From the NCBI GenBank assembly GCA_964589005.1, contig CAZPQI010000001.1, forward strand, positions 67,675 to 131,674: a DNA stretch of 64,000 nucleotides, written 5' to 3'. A program made the translations under genes and the position numbers. The notes under the pieces were generated by a model. The model searched no databases, was not told where the DNA came from, and saw only the letters and a program-made list of their open reading frames with translations. The DNA comes from an uncultured Candidatus Saccharibacteria bacterium. GTDB taxonomy: Bacteria; Patescibacteriota; Minisyncoccia; Phycocordibacterales; UBA2100. Shown here in pieces: positions 10,790 to 24,526 of this stretch (the first letter of the stretch is position 1; every line of letters begins with the position of its first letter).

Positions 10790-12313
10790 TTAAATATCAC
10801 TCACTATTTCTATCTGTGCCCCAATATCTGCGAGGCGCTCGGCAATACGCTCGTACCCTCTTTCAATTGAATATACGTTTCGCAATAAAGAAGTTCCCTC
10901 TGCTGCAAGCATGGCAATAAGCACCACCACCGCAGGACGAAGAGCAGGTGGACACACTACCTGTGCAGCTCTAAGTTCTGTTGGTCCTGTTACAAATACG
11001 CGATGTGGATCGGCAAGTTTTACATCCGCTCCCAAACGATTAAGCTCAGTAAAATAAATAGCTCTTCCTTCCCAAGCCCAATCGTGGATTAGAGTAGTGC
11101 CCTTTGCTTGTGTCGCAATAGGAACAAAGAACGGTAAGTTATCAATGTTAAGCCCTGGATACGGTAGCGGATGTATTTTTATGGGAGACGCTTTCAACTC
11201 CGATGGATATATCGTAAGGTCTACAAGTTTCGTTTTTCCGTTTTTGGAAAAATACACTTTACCTTGTTCATACTTTAATCCCATGTATGTAAGCTTAAGT
11301 AACTCGACTTCAAGAAACTCAATGGGGCACCTTTTTATTTGCAGTTCAGACTTCGTTACTGCTGCGGCACTTATAAACATCATCGACTCTATCGGGTCTT
11401 CGCTATTGTAGTGTGTAATTTTTTTGTCTATTTCGTCTACCCCATACACGGTTAGAGTCGTTGTTCCTACCCCATCAATACGTACGCCAAATTGCCGCAA
11501 CAAAAAACAAACGTCTTGTACTTGGTAATTAGGTGGAGCGTACTTTATTACTGTTTTTCCAGGAATCAGCGCCGCTGTCATCAGTGCGTTAATCGCAGCA
11601 GTGTCACTCGCCTCATACATAACAATTTCTGTAGGCTTCAATTTTTTTACTTTAAATGAATAGTGATTTTCGTGGGTTCCTACACGAACACCAAGAGATT
11701 CAAGGGCGTGCTTGTGTGCAGCTATTGTTCTATCACCCATATTACATCCACCAGCGTGTGGAAGCGTAAAATCGCCTTTACGATGCACCATTGCGGGAAT
11801 AAGCATAAGTACCGATCGCATTTTGCTTGCAGCACTTTTGTCTATACTGGAAAGTTTAAAACTTTTCGGGGGGGTGATATGTAATGTGCACTCGTTAAGA
11901 GCATCAACTTGCACGCCAATGCTTTTAAATACCTCAATCAGTCTATGAATTTCTTCTATGCGTGGAATTCCATGTAGCACTGTCGGAGCCTTGTTTAAAA
12001 GAGACGCACACATCAAAGCAAGCGCGCCGTTTTTGGAAGTGTTAGTAACTGCTGTTCCATGTAACTTTTTTCCACCGGTAACTTTAAAGTCTAAACCTTC
12101 TTTTAAACCAACAACTTGATGTTGTAATACATCGCTTATTTTCAATAGTTGTGTTGTAGAAAGGTTCTGGTCACCCTTTTCCATGCGCGCAACTGCCGAC
12201 TGCGAAGTTTGCATTGCTTGTGCAAACGCTTTCTGAGTTAACCCGCGCTTACGACGAAGATCTTTGATAAAAAGTCCAATTTTACGATGTGATTCTGAAG
12301 ACATGGGGTTCAA
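10790..12313 (-). CDS. murA: UDP-N-acetylglucosamine 1-carboxyvinyltransferase with an N-terminal XRE-family HTH domain (fusion)
   Basis: Residues 1-65 form an HTH_XRE domain (LRRKRGLTQKAFAQAMQTSQSAVARMEKG). From about residue 70 the sequence is MurA-like (KVTGGKKLHGTAV...NGALALMCASLL), including the active-site Cys loop HAGGCNMGDR. It is a single uninterrupted ORF. Confidence 0.8.
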   Translation of the reverse strand: MNPMSSESHRKIGLFIKDLRRKRGLTQKAFAQAMQTSQSAVARMEKGDQNLSTTQLLKISDVLQHQVVGLKEGLDFKVTGGKKLHGTAVTNTSKNGALALMCASLLNKAPTVLHGIPRIEEIHRLIEVFKSIGVQVDALNECTLHITPPKSFKLSSIDKSAASKMRSVLMLIPAMVHRKGDFTLPHAGGCNMGDRTIAAHKHALESLGVRVGTHENHYSFKVKKLKPTEIVMYEASDTAAINALMTAALIPGKTVIKYAPPNYQVQDVCFLLRQFGVRIDGVGTTTLTVYGVDEIDKKITHYNSEDPIESMMFISAAAVTKSELQIKRCPIEFLEVELLKLTYMGLKYEQGKVYFSKNGKTKLVDLTIYPSELKASPIKIHPLPYPGLNIDNLPFFVPIATQAKGTTLIHDWAWEGRAIYFTELNRLGADVKLADPHRVFVTGPTELRAAQVVCPPALRPAVVVLIAMLAAEGTSLLRNVYSIERGYERIAERLADIGAQIEIVSDI

Positions 12314-16654: not shown

Positions 16655-16774
16655 TACTTTCTATTATATCACGTTGAAAAAACACTTTTCTCGTGTAGAA
16701 TACGGCTCAGTTCTTTCCAAAGTTATATAGATTTTTTCGCTCCGCGGTAGCTCAGTGGTAGAGCAATCGACTGT

Positions 16775-17026
16775 CGAAGGCAGCCTTTGGTAGTAATATC
16801 AAAGTGAAGAACGAGGTGAATTGACTGGAAACCCTAACGTAAAGGCGAGGGCAATCAGCAGCCAAGCTTAATTGAAGGTTCAGAGACTATTCCGAAAGGA
16901 AGTACTATCCATTGTAATTATTTTGCAACTGGACGGGAAGCGCCTCGCATCCTAATCCGATCACGTCAGTGATTTAGGATGGATGATGATATAGTCCACC
17001 CCTTTTGGAAACAATTGGAAAAGGTG
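16775..17026 (+). mobile_element. putative group I intron (approx 252 nt) in the tRNA-Asn anticodon loop
   Basis: The 5' exon ends in U and the intron ends in G. An internal guide GCAG can pair with exon CUGU to form P1. GGAAACCCUAACG, CCAAGCUU and AGAGACUA match elements I recall from small bacterial tRNA group I introns of the Azoarcus tRNA-Ile / cyanobacterial tRNA-Leu type. A GACGGG...AUAGUCC P7-like pairing is present. The size fits that class. Confidence 0.6.
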
Positions 17027-17046
17027 TAATCGATTGGCCATAGGTT

Positions 17047-17064
17047 CGAATCCTATCCGCGGAG
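17047..17064 (+). repeat. direct repeat copy A (tRNA 3' end gaatcctatccgcggagc)
   Basis: An identical 18-mer recurs at 17445-17462. The pair flank the HNH ORF. Confidence 0.75.
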
Positions 17065-17102
17065 CGAAGTAATCTATACTTAAAGAGTGGTAGACTTAAT
17101 AG

Positions 17103-17435
17103 ATGTCTACCACTAAGAAACGAAAAGAAAAACGTACGTACGCCGATCGTCGTGAGTACATGATAAAGGCAGTCGCTAAACGACGCAGAAAGTTACGAAC
17201 TATGGCTTTAGAGCATGGAGGTGGTAAGTGTACGATTTGTGGGTATAAGAAATGCACTAGAGCGCTCACTTTTCATCACCTGGATCCATCTAAGAAAAAG
17301 TTCGGATTATCTGCCAGAGGGATAACTCGCTCATGGGAAAAAACTAAAGCAGAGTTAGAAAAATGTGTTTTGCTATGTATGAACTGCCACATGGAAATAC
17401 ATGATGGAGTTACTAAAGTTCCAAAGAAAAGGTAA
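17103..17435 (+). CDS. HNH endonuclease
   Basis: 110 aa with CxxC...HHLDP...N...CxxCH, a His-Me finger. Lies immediately 3' of the intron-containing tRNA, bracketed by duplicated tRNA 3'-end sequence. Confidence 0.8.
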   Translation: MSTTKKRKEKRTYADRREYMIKAVAKRRRKLRTMALEHGGGKCTICGYKKCTRALTFHHLDPSKKKFGLSARGITRSWEKTKAELEKCVLLCMNCHMEIHDGVTKVPKKR

Positions 17436-17444
17436 TTTTACGTT

Positions 17445-17462
17445 GAATCCTATCCGCGGAGC
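17445..17462 (+). repeat. direct repeat copy B (partial tRNA 3' end)
   Basis: gaatcctatccgcggagc preceded by gtt. One base of the tRNA T-loop (c) is missing. Looks like an att-site-style duplication. Confidence 0.75.
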
Positions 17463-17489
17463 CATCGACATGCAAAAATATTTTTCAAT

Positions 17490-17517
17490 CCATATTTAAT
17501 TACGTAATTAAATATGG
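17490..17517. promoter_or_regulatory. 28-bp perfect palindrome ccatatttaattacgtaattaaatatgg, with a second aattacgtaatt immediately after
   Basis: Lies about 35 bp upstream of the AbrB-like ORF. The TTACGTAA core is present twice. Operator candidate. Confidence 0.5.
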
Positions 17518-17551
17518 AATAAATTACGTAATTCTGCTAAAATCAAAAATA

Positions 17552-17728
17552 ATGGGACGACGCAAACTAAGTGACAAAAACATACGAAAACTAAGTAAAA
17601 TTGGTGGCAAAAGCATCGGTGTCACGATTCCTATTGAAATGGTGCGTAAATTAGGATGGAGAAGTAAGCAAAAGGTTGTTGTAGAAGAAAGAGGCAAGAC
17701 CATTGTCATCAAAGATTGGAAAAAATAA
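17552..17728 (+). CDS. AbrB/MazE/SpoVT-like small DNA-binding protein (58 aa; below ORF-track cutoff)
   Basis: MGRRKLSDKNIRKLSKIGGKSIGVTIPIEMVRKLGWRSKQKVVVEERGKTIVIKDWKK. The pattern (K.G.s..vtIP.e....lg...g..v.v...g..ivI) matches the swapped-hairpin AbrB/MazE fold. Confidence 0.45.
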   Translation: MGRRKLSDKNIRKLSKIGGKSIGVTIPIEMVRKLGWRSKQKVVVEERGKTIVIKDWKK

Positions 17729-17777
17729 AAATCTTAAATTTTTAGAACAAAGGCTTCTAAACCCTTTTTAGATTTTT

Positions 17778-18173
17778 CTATAAAATTTCTTTGTATTCTA
17801 TATAGTTAGTTTGAATCATTTTCTTCCACCAGACAGTCTCGTTATTACCTCTAATGTCATTCTTACAATAAACTAACAATATTTTAACTTCTTTTTTTGT
17901 TTTGTATTGAGCAACAATACATCTATTCCCAGAGGCTTTTGCGGATTCACTTGGTAAAATTTTAAATTCGCACTTATAGATGACAATGTCACTATCCAAA
18001 TCAGAAATAGAACTAGTTACACTCCGATCAATCATTAAATCAAACTTTCTAAGCATCAGAATAAAAGCTGACCACGGAGTGTTAAAAGAACTTTTATATT
18101 TTTTGCGCAAACTCTTTAAGTATAATTTTTCAGCAACACTTTCTGTAGAGACATCGTAATAATTAGTAGACAT
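17778..18173 (-). CDS. hypothetical 131-aa protein, candidate toxin partner of the Panacea-domain protein
   Basis: Overlaps the upstream HTH-Panacea gene by 11 nt, so translational coupling is likely. A weak RelE/ParE-like C-terminal pattern (NRCIVAQYKTKKEVKILLVYCKND). No confident family assignment. Confidence 0.4.
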   Translation of the reverse strand: MSTNYYDVSTESVAEKLYLKSLRKKYKSSFNTPWSAFILMLRKFDLMIDRSVTSSISDLDSDIVIYKCEFKILPSESAKASGNRCIVAQYKTKKEVKILLVYCKNDIRGNNETVWWKKMIQTNYIEYKEIL

Positions 18174-18858
18174 GCTCTGGGTCTTCTTGGGTTATAAGTT
18201 CGTACGGAATAATTGACCCTTTATCGGCAAAAATATATGGTATCTGCTCATGAGTAAACCTTACAATATCCTGCGTATTTGATTTTTTCCAATTATCCCA
18301 GACGTCGTGCATAAGTTTCTCCTCTGCTTTAGAAATAGAGTTTAAAGAATTTTTTTCTGAACCTCGAGTTTCAGAAAAAGAATATGTATCTTTTCCTTCG
18401 TCACTTTTGTGACTTACCACGATACTTCCGTCATCTTCTAATTCTTGAATTGCACGAAAATACGCATCCGGAACTGGGCCGAATTCAATTTTACGATATG
18501 GCATTCCACTTATGCTCTCTTGATGCTTGTAGTACCAAGCGAAGTCAGCAAGATACAAAAGTTTAGCTAGTTTAGTTTTCTTCAATACCTGCCCACTTTT
18601 TTTTGCATCGCGTAAATACGATAGAATCATCTGCTTATACTTTTCATAGTTAGGTGCTTGATTAGATAGAAGCTCTTGAATAGAGATACCAAACATGTCA
18701 GATAGCTTTTGTGCCTCCAGTAAACTAAGTTCTTTTACACCTTTTTCTAAAGAAACGTAAGATGGTCTAGAGATGCCAATCCTCTCAGCAACTTCACCTT
18801 GCGAAAACTTACGGTCTAAACGAAGACTCTTTATAAATTTAAAATAAGTATTACTCAT
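18163..18858 (-). CDS. XRE-HTH + Panacea (DUF4065/SocA-like) domain protein, putative PanA antitoxin/regulator
   Basis: N-terminal HTH (SQGEVAERIGISRPSYVSLEKG). The C-terminal region carries KLAKLLYLADF...GMPY...FGPVPDAY, the conserved core of DUF4065. Confidence 0.65.
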   Translation of the reverse strand: MSNTYFKFIKSLRLDRKFSQGEVAERIGISRPSYVSLEKGVKELSLLEAQKLSDMFGISIQELLSNQAPNYEKYKQMILSYLRDAKKSGQVLKKTKLAKLLYLADFAWYYKHQESISGMPYRKIEFGPVPDAYFRAIQELEDDGSIVVSHKSDEGKDTYSFSETRGSEKNSLNSISKAEEKLMHDVWDNWKKSNTQDIVRFTHEQIPYIFADKGSIIPYELITQEDPEHVY

Positions 18859-19002
18859 AGAAACAGTATACTACATACAAATTATGCTACGTCAACATCT
18901 TATCCACAGGATGTCACCTTTTTGACATCCTAAACGTTACTTGGTAAAATACAAACCACTTCGAGTGCAACGGAGGATTATTAGTTAAGTTTCTCAAAAT
19001 AT

Positions 19003-19146
19003 ATGGGACACAAGAAAGTAACAAGCAAGAGTATGTCTACCAAGGCAAGCAAGGCTTTGCGTAGCGGAAGCACAGGAAAAACTACGAAGTCACTTGCTGG
19101 CTCTACTCTATCGCAAAGCAAGGGGAAACACAGGAAAGGTAAATAG
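19003..19146 (+). CDS. possible 47-aa Lys/Ser/Thr-rich basic peptide (low confidence)
   Basis: MGHKKVTSKSMSTKASKALRSGSTGKTTKSLAGSTLSQSKGKHRKGK, followed by a hairpin (aaaaccga..tcggtttt) plus a T-rich tail. No clear RBS. Confidence 0.2.
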   Translation: MGHKKVTSKSMSTKASKALRSGSTGKTTKSLAGSTLSQSKGKHRKGK

Positions 19147-19289
19147 TAGAAAACCGACCTAAAGGATCGGTTTTCTACAAAAGTTTTATTTCAAGGTCGT
19201 GCGGAAGGGTGACTTTGTTTTTATATACTAGCAATGAATTAGATGTTTAACTAAGAAAATCGTAGGACAAATGTTAATTTGTTTTAAAA

Positions 19290-20453
19290 TTACCGATTTC
19301 CTTTTGCGCGATTGTGTGTTTTACACAACATCTGGCAATTTTTTAGTGAAGTTGCACCACCCTTGCTCCATGCGGCTACGTGATCAGCGTCCATATCACT
19401 CAAGCTCCATACCTTATCCTTGTTAACATCGTGTCCAATAGCACAATGCTGGCAATTTGATTTCCCTTTGGTTTTGGCTGTCTTTGTTTGCGAGGCATAG
19501 ACAGATTTTTTTGTGGCTTCATCAAAAACTCGAACATCAAGAAGTTTTGTATCTTTTTCACCACCTAAAATATATTCAAATACTCCCCTATGATTTCTAA
19601 CATAAGGGTCTGCATATAATTTGTGAACTGTATCAGATAATTTTTTTGGGTTATATCCTTTCTTATGATGTTCTTCATAGAGCCTTCCCCACTCCAAACC
19701 TTTCATTTCACTTTCTATATCGATAAAAGTTTTAGAAACCCAATCAATTACACTACTAAAGTACGTTTCTAATTCACTGATATTAGCATCTTGTCTATGT
19801 TTACTCATATAATCTCCAACTTTTCCACGACTTACCCAATCAAGTGCTTTTGCCAAAAAATCTTGTCTATTAACACTACCCTTGATGTACGCACCCCATT
19901 TCAGAACATTAGAATTTCGTGAATTACTAAACTCTTCTTTTGCAAGTGTTACAAATGGTCCAGAATATATCGCATTGAGAAGTTCTTGTTCGTTTAATGG
20001 CACTCCTGCAATATTAATTGTCTTAAACCACTCTTTTATTTCACTTTCCTTTCCCATGCATTCATAAATTGTTAATTTAGTTTGCATTATTTCTTCTTGT
20101 TTGTCTTTTGAAATACCACTGAAATATTGCTCCATGCCGTTTTCATCTTTAACGGCAAATTTATTAGTTACATATCGTCCAAAGCTAGTGATTCTTTGTT
20201 GTCCATCCAAGACCTCCAAATTATCTTTTCCAACTTTATTGAAATAAATCAAACCTATTGGATAACCTTTCAGAATTGACTCAATTACAGCCACATCTTT
20301 TTTCCCATCAGCATAAATATAATTCCTTTGATACTCTGGCTGAATTTTTAATTTCCCATTTATCCCGAAAAGTCCTTTTCCCTCTAACTCATTATAAACA
20401 AATCCTTCGCAAATCTCTTTTACAGTGTATGTTGTTTTTAGTATTGTTTTCAT
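19290..20453 (-). CDS. DUF262 (ParB-like NTPase, DGQQR motif) + C-terminal HNH nuclease; restriction/defence endonuclease candidate
   Basis: [12 protein letters not shown] is the DUF262 signature. The C-terminus carries CQHC...[12 protein letters not shown]...[15 protein letters not shown], an HNH motif. Its start lies 1 nt after the stop of the upstream methyltransferase. Confidence 0.8.
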
Positions 20454-20454
20454 T

Positions 20455-21618
20455 TTATTTTTTGTGTTTGATTATAATTCTTGAGTATGGAACAACAGCT
20501 TTATCACCAACCATAATATAAAATCTCCATACAGAAGAATGACCTGGAAGAGACTTGTCTATTTCTTTTGGTATAGGAGTTATTCCCAATTTTTTTCCTA
20601 ATGCCCCAATTCCAATTCCAATTATTTCAAATTGTTCTGGGCAATATTTATCCATAAATGATACTGGCACACCCATTTCTCCCTTATAATCATTTGGAAT
20701 CGCTCTTACCATTGGGATATCAATCGCGTCATAATTAGCATATTTTGGATAATAATCTACTTCATACTTCTTTTTTAAATTATTTAATAGAGTAGTATTA
20801 AATTTAAGATTGTCTTTTTCAGACATTAACTGCAGGGGATGGTGCCTAACTCCATGGTCAATATTTGTATACCACCTTATACCATTTACTCTCCAATAAA
20901 ATTTACCATCTTTTATATATGCATTCTTTTCGTCAGACATTTTTTGTGAATCATATAGTTCTTTTGGAGCAATAAAATATGCTGCTCCCCCATTAAAGTA
21001 TGTAGCACCAAGCCACATAATATTATCTTTAATTAAAGGAAAGATTTCTTTATTCGCAATTGTGTTCAAATTCCCTATAATTACAAATTTTTTATTTGCT
21101 TCCAGTATCCAAGCTAAAAACTCTCTAAATAAACTAAATGGAGGATTTGTAATAATTATATCTGCTTCATCTCTTATCTTTTTTACTTCGCTGCTTCTGA
21201 AGTCTCCATCCCCTTTCATGTATTTCCAGTCTAAATCATCTATATCTATCTTATTATCTCCTGTTTTATCTTTTGTAAGAGTAAAAATCTTCCCTTTTAT
21301 TCTGGTTTTCTTTTTGTCAAACCTTGAACTTTTTTCTTCAAAAAGTGTTGTTTCGTATCCCTCCTTATATTTTTTACTTTCTACAGCATAACTTGTAGAA
21401 ACCAATTTTTTTAATTTAAATTTCTCAAAATTCTGTGCAAAGTATTTAGTGAAGTCGCTCCATTCAGGGTCATCGCAAGGTAAGAGAATAACTTTATCTT
21501 TAAAGACATTGGGGTTATATTCAAGATAAGCATTGATCTCTTTTTCAATGTCTTTATATTGTGTATAAAACTCATCGTTTTTTGCATTCTTCGCATCTGC
21601 CAAATTACTTTGTGCCAT
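20455..21618 (-). CDS. DNA amino-methyltransferase (N6-adenine or N4-cytosine), NPPF motif IV
   Basis: [11 protein letters not shown] is the catalytic motif IV of amino-MTases. The N-terminal DEFYT region is present. GC is very low, about 28-30% in sampled stretches. Confidence 0.8.
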
Positions 21619-24333: not shown

Positions 24334-24383
24334 AATGAAGAATCTTAGACTCAAAGTGCTATACTAAACGAACAATTGAATAA

Positions 24384-24526
24384 ATTATCAAGAAAGATGT
24401 GAAGGGACTAGCCTTATGACCATCTTAGCAACCTGTCTCTTCGTCCAGATAAGGTGCTCCATCTAGCCTGTATAGGAAAGATAACAATGCATCAGCATCT
24501 TACCCTTCACAGGAAAGATGTTTTTT
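24384..24526 (+). promoter_or_regulatory. SAM-I (S-box) riboswitch with terminator in the metK leader
   Basis: UUAUCAAGAAAGAUGUGAAGGGACUAGCC...GCAACC...AGAUAAGGUGCUCC...AUCUAGCC...GGAAAGAUAA matches the SAM-I consensus blocks (YUCUUAUCAAGAG..GGAGGGACUGGCC...GCAACC...AAGGUGCUAA..CCAGC..GAUAAGA). It is followed by the hairpin catctt...aagatg plus TTTTTT just before the metK start. Confidence 0.8.

Follow-up and report, generated by a model that had tools for sequence, protein, structure and literature searches.

Which tRNA gene lies at positions 16741-17064 of a 64-kb stretch of DNA from an uncultured Candidatus Saccharibacteria bacterium (contig CAZPQI010000001.1; the whole stretch of 64,000 nucleotides (nt) is referred to as the window), what interrupts it, and how is the small HNH endonuclease gene directly downstream related to the interruption? 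The results of this study lead us to conclude, with high confidence, that the locus is a chromosomal Patescibacteria tRNA-Asn(GUU) gene into which a group I intron with features of subgroup IA and without an open reading frame (ORF) is inserted, between U35 and U36. The HNH gene most likely is, or recently was, a homing endonuclease gene of the same intron family that has been relocated. The coordinates of the features are listed in Table 1.

A search with the Rfam model Intron_gpI (RF00028), a check proposed in the initial annotation of this locus, gave a match at 16725-17018 (+) with 77.9 bits against a gathering score of 50 (E = 4.5e-18), and the alignment spans the whole model (1-253). In silico splicing of the exons 16741-16774 and 17027-17064 yielded a 72-nt cloverleaf that ARAGORN called tRNA-Asn(GUU), with U1-A72, G73 and CUGUUAA as the 7-nt anticodon loop; CCA is not encoded. 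The U1-A72 pair and G73 are consistent with the known identity set of tRNA-Asn. The 5' exon ends in U16774 and the intron in G17026 (omega-G), followed by UAAUCG of the 3' exon; the omega position is occupied by G in 30 of 31 homologs. The sequence blocks GGAAACC...CUAACG, CCAAGCUU and AGAGACUA were found in the intron. The structural reading of the initial annotation, namely a canonical tRNA-Asn(GUU) with U1-A72 and G73 split by an insert of about 252 nt bearing group I hallmarks (exon-terminal U, omega-G, a GCAG guide pairing with CUGU, and the motif blocks), is borne out in these respects, the insert being exactly 252 nt. Nothing was found to support the alternatives it had listed, i.e. an insertion sequence (IS) fragment, a sequencing chimera or a pseudogene.

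Identification of the host tRNA depends on the register of the splice site. With default settings ARAGORN found zero tRNA genes in the whole window, the sole tRNA present being hidden by the intron. With introns allowed (-i), it reported tRNA-Thr(tgt) i(33,252), i.e. an intron at 33/34 of a tRNA-Thr(UGU) gene, both boundaries being shifted 2 nt to the left of the Asn register. The ambiguity is genuine, since in both registers the exon ends in U (U33 in the Thr register) and the intron in G (17024 in the Thr register). Helix P1 decides between the two. GCAG at 16780-16783 pairs with CUGU at 16771-16774, and U16774 and G16780 form the splice-site wobble pair. Direct tabulation of 31 homologs revealed an identical P1 layout, with U35 opposite G, in every homolog for which the guide was correctly identified; the automatic choice of guide was wrong in the endonuclease-containing introns L005, L008, L009, L011, L015 and L018. 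The pair between intron position +1 and the base 5' of GCAG covaries (G-C in 12, C-G in five, A-U in five and G.U or U.G in four of the 31). P1 appears weak (53% paired) in the MAFFT alignment described below, where U35 of the window is misaligned, and the direct tabulation was used for this helix. Because the neighbouring pair covaries, and because in the Thr reading U33 would face the A of GCAG and not its G, the register is fixed at 35/36. The window P1 (CUGU/CGAAG-GCAG, the slash marking the splice site) has the same layout and the same 5-nt loop L1 as that of the experimentally spliced intron of GCA_016700035 (CUGU/UAAAG-GCAG). The tRNA body (G73, U1-A72) likewise agrees with Asn genes; for its comparison with other tRNAs, the fetched Patescibacteria loci provided just five tRNAs, none of them Thr. 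Exactly this mis-call has been described by Nakagawa et al. (mSystems 2026, PMC13011429; preprint July 2025), who found that ARAGORN and tFind often label tRNA-Asn 35/36 introns as Thr(UGU) 33/34 and who sequenced the 35/36 junction of a homolog. The Thr reading is rejected on the P1 register and this published junction, and we regard its probability as very low.

The initial annotation considered Asn an unusual host for a bacterial tRNA intron. This premise no longer holds, because the class is described both by Williams (2020; bioRxiv 10.1101/2020.01.27.920355), who expanded the classes of interrupted tRNA to 21, and by Nakagawa et al.; the classes of Williams include 'Asn.4Ug', as relayed in the latter paper. 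Nakagawa et al. (PMC13011429) reported 15 tRNA-Asn(GUU) 35/36 group I introns for 95 complete Patescibacteria genomes, assigned 25 of 28 introns at 35/36 to subgroup IA and found an HNH endonuclease encoded in four tRNA-Asn introns. They also showed that the intron of GCA_016700035.1 self-splices precisely at 35/36 in vitro, the ligated tRNA being sequenced, and that mutation of its omega-G to C blocks exon ligation. Comparison with the full-length tRNA-Asn introns of their Table S3 (n=11) revealed 59-71% identity of the window intron to ten of the 11 and 48% to that of GCA_030583765; the exons are 64-83% identical, and the closest member is that of the Paceibacteria genome GCA_016699245 (83% for the exons). 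Invariant sequence blocks are shared by the window and its homologs in the alignment. A pattern scan of metagenomes, not seeded with the HNH gene, identified at least 120 endonuclease-free tRNA-Asn-type intron loci, of which 109 were resolved, all 109 as tRNA-Asn; the class is therefore common in the environment. Judged by its sequence, the window intron is a further member of a class already published and experimentally validated, and novelty of the host tRNA cannot be claimed for it.

For analysis of the ribozyme structure, helices P1-P9 together with P7.1 and P7.2 were written for the window, and pairs were then counted across a MAFFT alignment of 16 introns that encode no endonuclease, namely that of the window, ten published ones and five taken from genome contigs. 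Standard pairs occur in 87% of cells against 72% in column shuffles, and none of 500 shuffles reached the observed value; when partners were slid by 1-3 columns, standard pairs fell to 32-46%. Changes on both sides were found in 42 of 69 pairs, with compensatory changes concentrated in P2, P3, P4, P5, P8 and P9. No variation was seen across the alignment in P6, in P7 or in the exon side of P1, which are therefore uninformative for structure. Single-sequence folding of the precursor (z = -5.4) recovered most helices, both P7.1 and P7.2, and the tRNA arms. In the window all core pairs of P1, P3, P4, P5, P7 and P8 are standard, and the long P6a of Saccharimonadia homologs is nearly absent. By analogy, P7 would be the guanosine-binding helix.

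The spacing between P7 and P3' is 51 nt, most of which the Rfam model treats as insertion. The nearest DNA matches of the intron are phage introns (from Staphylococcus, Bacillus, Vibrio and other phages). These matches and the extra helices P7.1 and P7.2 between P7 and P3' fit subgroup IA rather than IC3. The motifs cited in the initial annotation do not point to IC3, because they are common to many group I introns. A phage origin of the window was considered and rejected, the similarity being limited to short group I core matches (12-18% coverage) and the neighbours being chromosomal housekeeping genes.

The neighbouring genes comprise priA, def, fmt, hpf (which encodes a ribosome hibernation factor) and a DUF167 gene. 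The order priA-def-fmt-hpf-DUF167-tRNA-Asn recurs in many loci from Patescibacteria metagenome-assembled genomes (MAGs) at 30-55% protein identity; the tRNA-Asn gene is therefore chromosomal and in a conserved position. The window contains no rRNA; synteny and the relatives of the HNH protein indicate, indirectly, that the host belongs to Patescibacteria (candidate phyla radiation, CPR) and not to Firmicutes, and on these comparisons it is only distantly related to the Patescibacteria retrieved. The same sequence occurs on a contig of Joint Genome Institute (JGI) metagenome 3300033050. A gene in this position might still be a dead copy, its intron non-splicing or its tRNA a pseudogene, with a second, intact tRNA-Asn elsewhere doing the work; in favour of this, our view is confined to 64 kb of the genome, and the intron has a truncated P6 and two U.U mismatches in P9. 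We consider this very improbable in view of the standard core pairs, a score 28 bits over the gathering score, a perfect cloverleaf, the conserved syntenic position and the report that interrupted and uninterrupted copies of one anticodon rarely coexist in a genome (Nakagawa et al., PMC13011429).

Analysis of the free-standing gene downstream of the tRNA revealed a protein matching Pfam HNH (PF01844; 21.5 bits, cut-off 21.4) and PHROG 2255 (E = 2.8e-27); profile comparison also linked it to 6me0_C, the endonuclease domain of a group II intron maturase (E = 2.7e-5), and no matching model was found in NCBIfam. The protein is 49-70% identical over about 100 amino acids (E 2e-30 to 5e-56) to all four published intron-encoded endonucleases, and the invariant residues C43, C46, H58, H59, C88, C92, N94, C95 and H96 are all retained. 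Ahead of the HNH start codon, 16 of 21 loci carry the motif TGGTAnAnn, against a background of about 0.03 per 100 nt. As it is present whether the gene lies inside or outside the intron, it suggests that the HNH gene carries its own promoter.

A protein scan of GTDB species genomes with the window HNH identified 25 loci, all but a few from Patescibacteria MAGs. A split tRNA-Asn(GUU) was found in 20 of them by pairing of acceptor-stem complementarity and ARAGORN analysis of the spliced product. The HNH gene lies within the intron in 14 loci, where the introns are 544-633 nt long; in the published introns the P1 loop contains the ORF, the last codons of which extend across the guide sequence. 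In five of the 25 loci the gene is free-standing and the intron ORF-less (230-278 nt in all five). Two of these (L002, L010) have it downstream in the orientation of the tRNA, which is also the arrangement in the window; it is upstream on the same strand in L016, and upstream and divergent in L006 and L007. Three blocks common to L010 and L004 (74-79% identity) occur in permuted order, and in a weakly resolved neighbour-joining tree free-standing and intron-encoded copies are intermingled. The C-terminus of nearly all intron-encoded copies is (T/S/V)QLP, the codons of which form the GCAGC guide and the beginning of P2. This tail has drifted in all six free-standing copies (TKVP in the window), which fits a relaxation of the RNA constraint once the gene had left the intron.

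Among the 109 resolved metagenome matches listed, the HNH family occurs within about 650 nt in 12, is absent from 48 with at least 700 nt on both sides, and cannot be judged in 49 with shorter flanks. About one-fifth of the assessable endonuclease-free loci among these matches (12 of about 60) thus adjoin a free-standing HNH gene, and since about 80% of adequately flanked endonuclease-free introns have none nearby, the intron persists without it. In the literature no paper was found describing HNH copies beside tRNA-Asn introns. Nakagawa et al. (PMC13011429) sought endonuclease genes only within introns longer than 500 bp, and adjacent copies are unmentioned in their paper. The new element, a modest one, is the cognate HNH gene outside the intron, recurring across Patescibacteria. 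Distant relatives of the HNH protein (40-56% identity) occur outside Patescibacteria in Chamaesiphon MAGs (L023, L024) and an Oligoflexia MAG (L025, L026); they have a longer, Cys-rich N-terminal extension, and the automated search saw no split tRNA-Asn near them. Some intron-encoded HNH genes are decaying, with frameshifts and several stops in L021 (5004-5322) and an in-frame stop in L005 (1326-1676), as expected for homing endonuclease genes, which usually go through cycles of gain and decay.

The downstream HNH gene most likely is, or recently was, the homing endonuclease of the intron family, moved out of the intron. An explanation that we take seriously, though short of thinking it probable, is that it is no longer a partner of the intron and has no role in mobility, being instead a selfish gene that has escaped or is decaying, or a gene recruited for a different purpose such as defence. 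The 48 of about 60 assessable endonuclease-free introns without a nearby HNH gene among the matches listed, the drifted C-terminal tail, the intron-encoded pseudogenes of L021 and L005, and the adjoining restriction/toxin-antitoxin cluster (MazE-like, Panacea-domain, GmrSD-like and EcoRI-methylase-like genes) all agree with this explanation. The window ORF, however, is intact, has all invariant residues and keeps the conserved upstream motif, and the family is found at tRNA-Asn in 20 of 25 genome loci. Because it is nearly always at tRNA-Asn, and there in four different relative positions, continued targeting is favoured over random drift.

Two sets of repeats were found at the locus. An inverted repeat (16726-16747 / 17057-17078; 22 nt, 91% complementary) is present in both the minimum free energy (MFE) and the centroid folds and forms a leader-trailer helix extending the acceptor stem. 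Equivalent helices of 13-16 bp with differing sequences were found in L010, L013 and L021 (also L098 and L111). Among the metagenome loci listed, just two of 108 have one, which limits the helix to few lineages. In the second set, 18 nt of the tRNA 3' end recur without mismatch in direct orientation, and the two copies flank the HNH cassette; 0 such repeats are expected by chance. Similar extra stretches of the 3' end of tRNA-Asn, reaching from the T-loop to about position 73, occur downstream in about 15% of the related loci listed, usually as direct copies about 153-190 nt away, sometimes with an inverted copy at +48 to +59. Extra copies were seen in L010, L015, L018, L029, L045, L061, L073, L102, L112, L119, L137 and L144, and could be old attachment-site scars or a small element of unknown kind.

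The 18-nt repeat was considered as a footprint of endonuclease insertion, and this was dropped: 3'-end copies are found equally with and without HNH (3 of 12 HNH-bearing against 15 of 97 HNH-free loci among the metagenome matches listed), and the repeat therefore cannot be tied to the endonuclease. A related proposal is that the cassette arrived on a small integrative element using the tRNA-Asn 3' end as its attachment (att) site and leaving the repeats as attL/attR-like scars. The perfect repeat bracketing the cassette and the 3'-end copies downstream of related tRNA-Asn genes are what such an element would leave. We judge it unlikely, as no integrase lies between the repeats, where the sole content is the 333-nt HNH ORF, and the repeats are equally common without HNH. 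Moreover, the trailer within the bracketed segment pairs with the native leader, so that this part of the segment is not foreign. An empty-site relative (the tRNA followed directly by CCATCGACATGC, with the cassette-free junction GGTTCGAATCCTATCCGCGGAGCCATCGAC) was sought among the related loci and none was found; the closest of these loci have about 68% DNA identity, and at most 53% identity in the Fmt protein.

Taken with the published self-splicing homolog, these features suggest the following course of events. Transcription of the precursor is probably driven by the promoter-like site near 16674-16701. P1 would arise from pairing of C32-U35 in the anticodon loop with the GCAG guide, with U35 in the U.G wobble pair. 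Free guanosine, bound by P7, would attack after U35, and omega-G 17026 would then replace it, after which the 3'-OH of U35 would attack before U36, ligating the exons into a functional tRNA-Asn. From outside the intron the HNH enzyme could cut intron-less tRNA-Asn alleles and so mobilise the adjacent intron in trans, i.e. by collaborative homing. Outside the intron, genes of the HNH family occupy downstream, upstream same-strand and upstream divergent positions. A bolder and tentative proposal, which we consider possible but somewhat less than probable, is that the locus and its relatives represent the first cellular, tRNA-gene case of collaborative homing, in which the HNH family would have moved repeatedly between the P1 loop and at least three outside positions while still mobilising the ORF-less intron in trans.

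Several points weigh against the interpretation given at the outset. Splicing of the window copy is what we infer from the homolog GCA_016700035.1, to which the in vitro splicing belongs. The view is limited to 64 kb, and other tRNA-Asn genes elsewhere are possible. P6 is unusually short, the two mismatches in P9 are present, and the assignment to IA is based on the P7.1/P7.2 helices and the classing of homologs by Nakagawa et al. The homology and position of the HNH gene are observed, and its nuclease activity and target we infer; with its 110 amino acids it would be a small site-specific enzyme, and the Pfam match barely reaches the cut-off. The tree suggesting several relocations is built on about 100 amino acids and is weakly resolved. 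Finally, about 80% of the adequately flanked endonuclease-free introns among the matches listed (48 of about 60) have no HNH gene nearby, and direct repeats like the one around the cassette also occur at loci that lack HNH.

The intron matters chiefly for annotation, as default tRNA finders miss the gene and intron-aware ones label it tRNA-Thr. Such genomes would be scored as lacking tRNA-Asn because the gene is missed or mislabelled, a point already made in the literature. Beyond annotation, about one-quarter of the HNH-associated loci have the gene outside the intron. In the view of Nakagawa et al. (PMC13011429), homing endonucleases are missing from most tRNA introns, and horizontal spread is limited for that reason. 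Should the free-standing HNH copies be active, the mobility of introns in these reduced genomes is underestimated, and the loci would document, as few natural cases do, how an endonuclease gene enters and leaves its intron. If collaborative homing is true, a share of the seemingly immobile endonuclease-free tRNA introns of Patescibacteria would actually be mobile, and the loci would constitute a natural series of intermediates for the assembly and breakup of composite mobile introns.

Other features were noted in the window. Promoter-like sites in the region are no more numerous than in shuffles, and the one at 16674-16701 is to be read as a consensus match only. Directly past the tRNA and HNH genes lies a defence/toxin-antitoxin-type cluster (17552-21618). 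Palindromic repeats at 17484-17533, between the distal tRNA-fragment copy and the MazE-like gene, comprise two copies of AATTACGTAATT and a 20-nt perfect-spacing inverted repeat, and may be a putative operator. An S-adenosylmethionine (SAM; S-box) riboswitch (RF00162) was found at 24382-24487 (+) with 49.7 bits against a gathering score of 44.4. The protein encoded at 10790-12313 (-) belongs to the enolpyruvyl-transferase family (EPSP_synthase fold in Pfam, resembling MurA by eye) and has an N-terminal Xre-type helix-turn-helix (HTH) domain (HTH_3, E = 1.3e-11), an unusual fusion.

Table 1. Features of the interrupted tRNA-Asn locus and its surroundings (positions in the window; percentages of paired cells and counts of changes refer to the alignment of 16 introns).
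Feature	Position	Strand	Remarks
Promoter-like site	16674-16701	+	TTGAAA-16 nt-TAGAAT; about 40 nt 5' of tRNA; 10/12 consensus matches
5' leader strand of acceptor-extending helix	16726-16740	+	pairs with 17064-17078; about 15 bp
tRNA-Asn(GUU) 5' exon	16741-16774	+	positions 1-35, last base U35; in silico splice and ARAGORN
Group I intron	16775-17026	+	252 nt, no ORF; between anticodon positions 35 and 36
P1	16771-16783	+	C32-U33-G34-U35 and intron C+1 paired with G-GCAG; guide 16780-16783; loop GAA
P2 hairpin	16785-16804	+	8 bp, GUAA tetraloop; 8/8 pairs change on both sides; 85% of cells paired
P3 5' strand	16812-16818	+	pairs with 16941-16947; 7 pairs, 99% of cells paired; 3 pairs compensatory in 7-8/16 sequences
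P4	16822-16828 / 16855-16860	+	encloses P5; 100% of cells paired; compensatory changes in 5/6 pairs
P5	16832-16835 / 16848-16851	+	72% paired; 3 covarying pairs
P6 (GCC / GGU)	16861-16879	+	distal part very short; 3 invariant pairs
P7 5' strand	16883-16889	+	GAGACUA, bulged A16884; pairs with 16992-16997; 6 pairs invariant in 16/16; P3/P7 pseudoknot
P7.1	16890-16901	+	UUCC-GAAA-GGAA; 90% paired among the 10 sequences having it
P7.2	16908-16933	+	poorly aligned, 50% paired
P3 3' strand	16941-16947	+	partner of 16812-16818
P8	16948-16985	+	long interrupted hairpin; outer 9 pairs 86% paired, 8 compensatory; recovered in single-sequence fold
P7 3' strand	16992-16997	+	UAGUCC; invariant
P9, 3' tail and omega-G	17001-17026	+	hairpin 17001-17018 (GAAA loop), 74% paired, 4 compensatory pairs; omega-G 17026
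tRNA-Asn 3' exon	17027-17064	+	positions 36-73, last base discriminator G73, CCA not encoded; ARAGORN
18-nt direct repeat, proximal copy	17048-17065	+	tRNA T-loop to position 74
3' trailer strand of leader-trailer helix	17064-17078	+	begins at G73, paired with C16740
Extended -10-like motif TGGTAGACT	17088-17096	+	6 nt 5' of HNH start codon
Free-standing HNH endonuclease gene	17103-17435	+	110 amino acids; 38 nt past tRNA 3' end
18-nt direct repeat, distal copy	17445-17462	+	9 nt past HNH stop; followed by CA, giving ...GGAGCCA
MazE-like antitoxin	17552-17728		
HTH and SocA/Panacea-domain protein	18163-18858	-	
GmrSD N-terminal domain and HNH protein	19290-20453	-	
EcoRI-like adenine methyltransferase	20455-21618	-	

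Comparison with known systems places the locus closest to the published Patescibacteria class, with which it shares the tRNA-Asn host, the 35/36 site, the GCAGC guide, the P1 layout, the mis-annotation by ARAGORN and the HNH family. Unlike the published HNH-bearing introns (about 570-600 nt, with the ORF in the P1 loop), the window intron is 252 nt long and ORF-less, and the HNH gene is outside it. The classical IC3 tRNA introns are those of tRNA-Leu(UAA) at 34/35, tRNA-fMet at 33/34, Azoarcus tRNA-Ile(CAU) and tRNA-Arg(CCU) at 36/37. Like these, the window intron is a small ORF-less ribozyme in the anticodon loop, uses loop bases in P1 and has the motifs GCCAAGC, AGAGACUA and AUAGUC; it differs from the Azoarcus/Anabaena type in its 35/36 site and in the presence of P7.1/P7.2, which the compact IC3 core lacks. 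The arrangement also resembles collaborative (trans) homing in phages, where an ORF-less self-splicing intron lies beside a free-standing endonuclease gene, and relatives with an embedded endonuclease exist here, as that model predicts. The phage cases concern protein-coding genes of phages, with cleavage at the intron site demonstrated, whereas the present case concerns a tRNA gene on a cellular chromosome and is known from sequence alone. The phage model, furthermore, proposes invasion of the intron by the endonuclease, whereas the drifted (T)QLP tail found here suggests exit from it.

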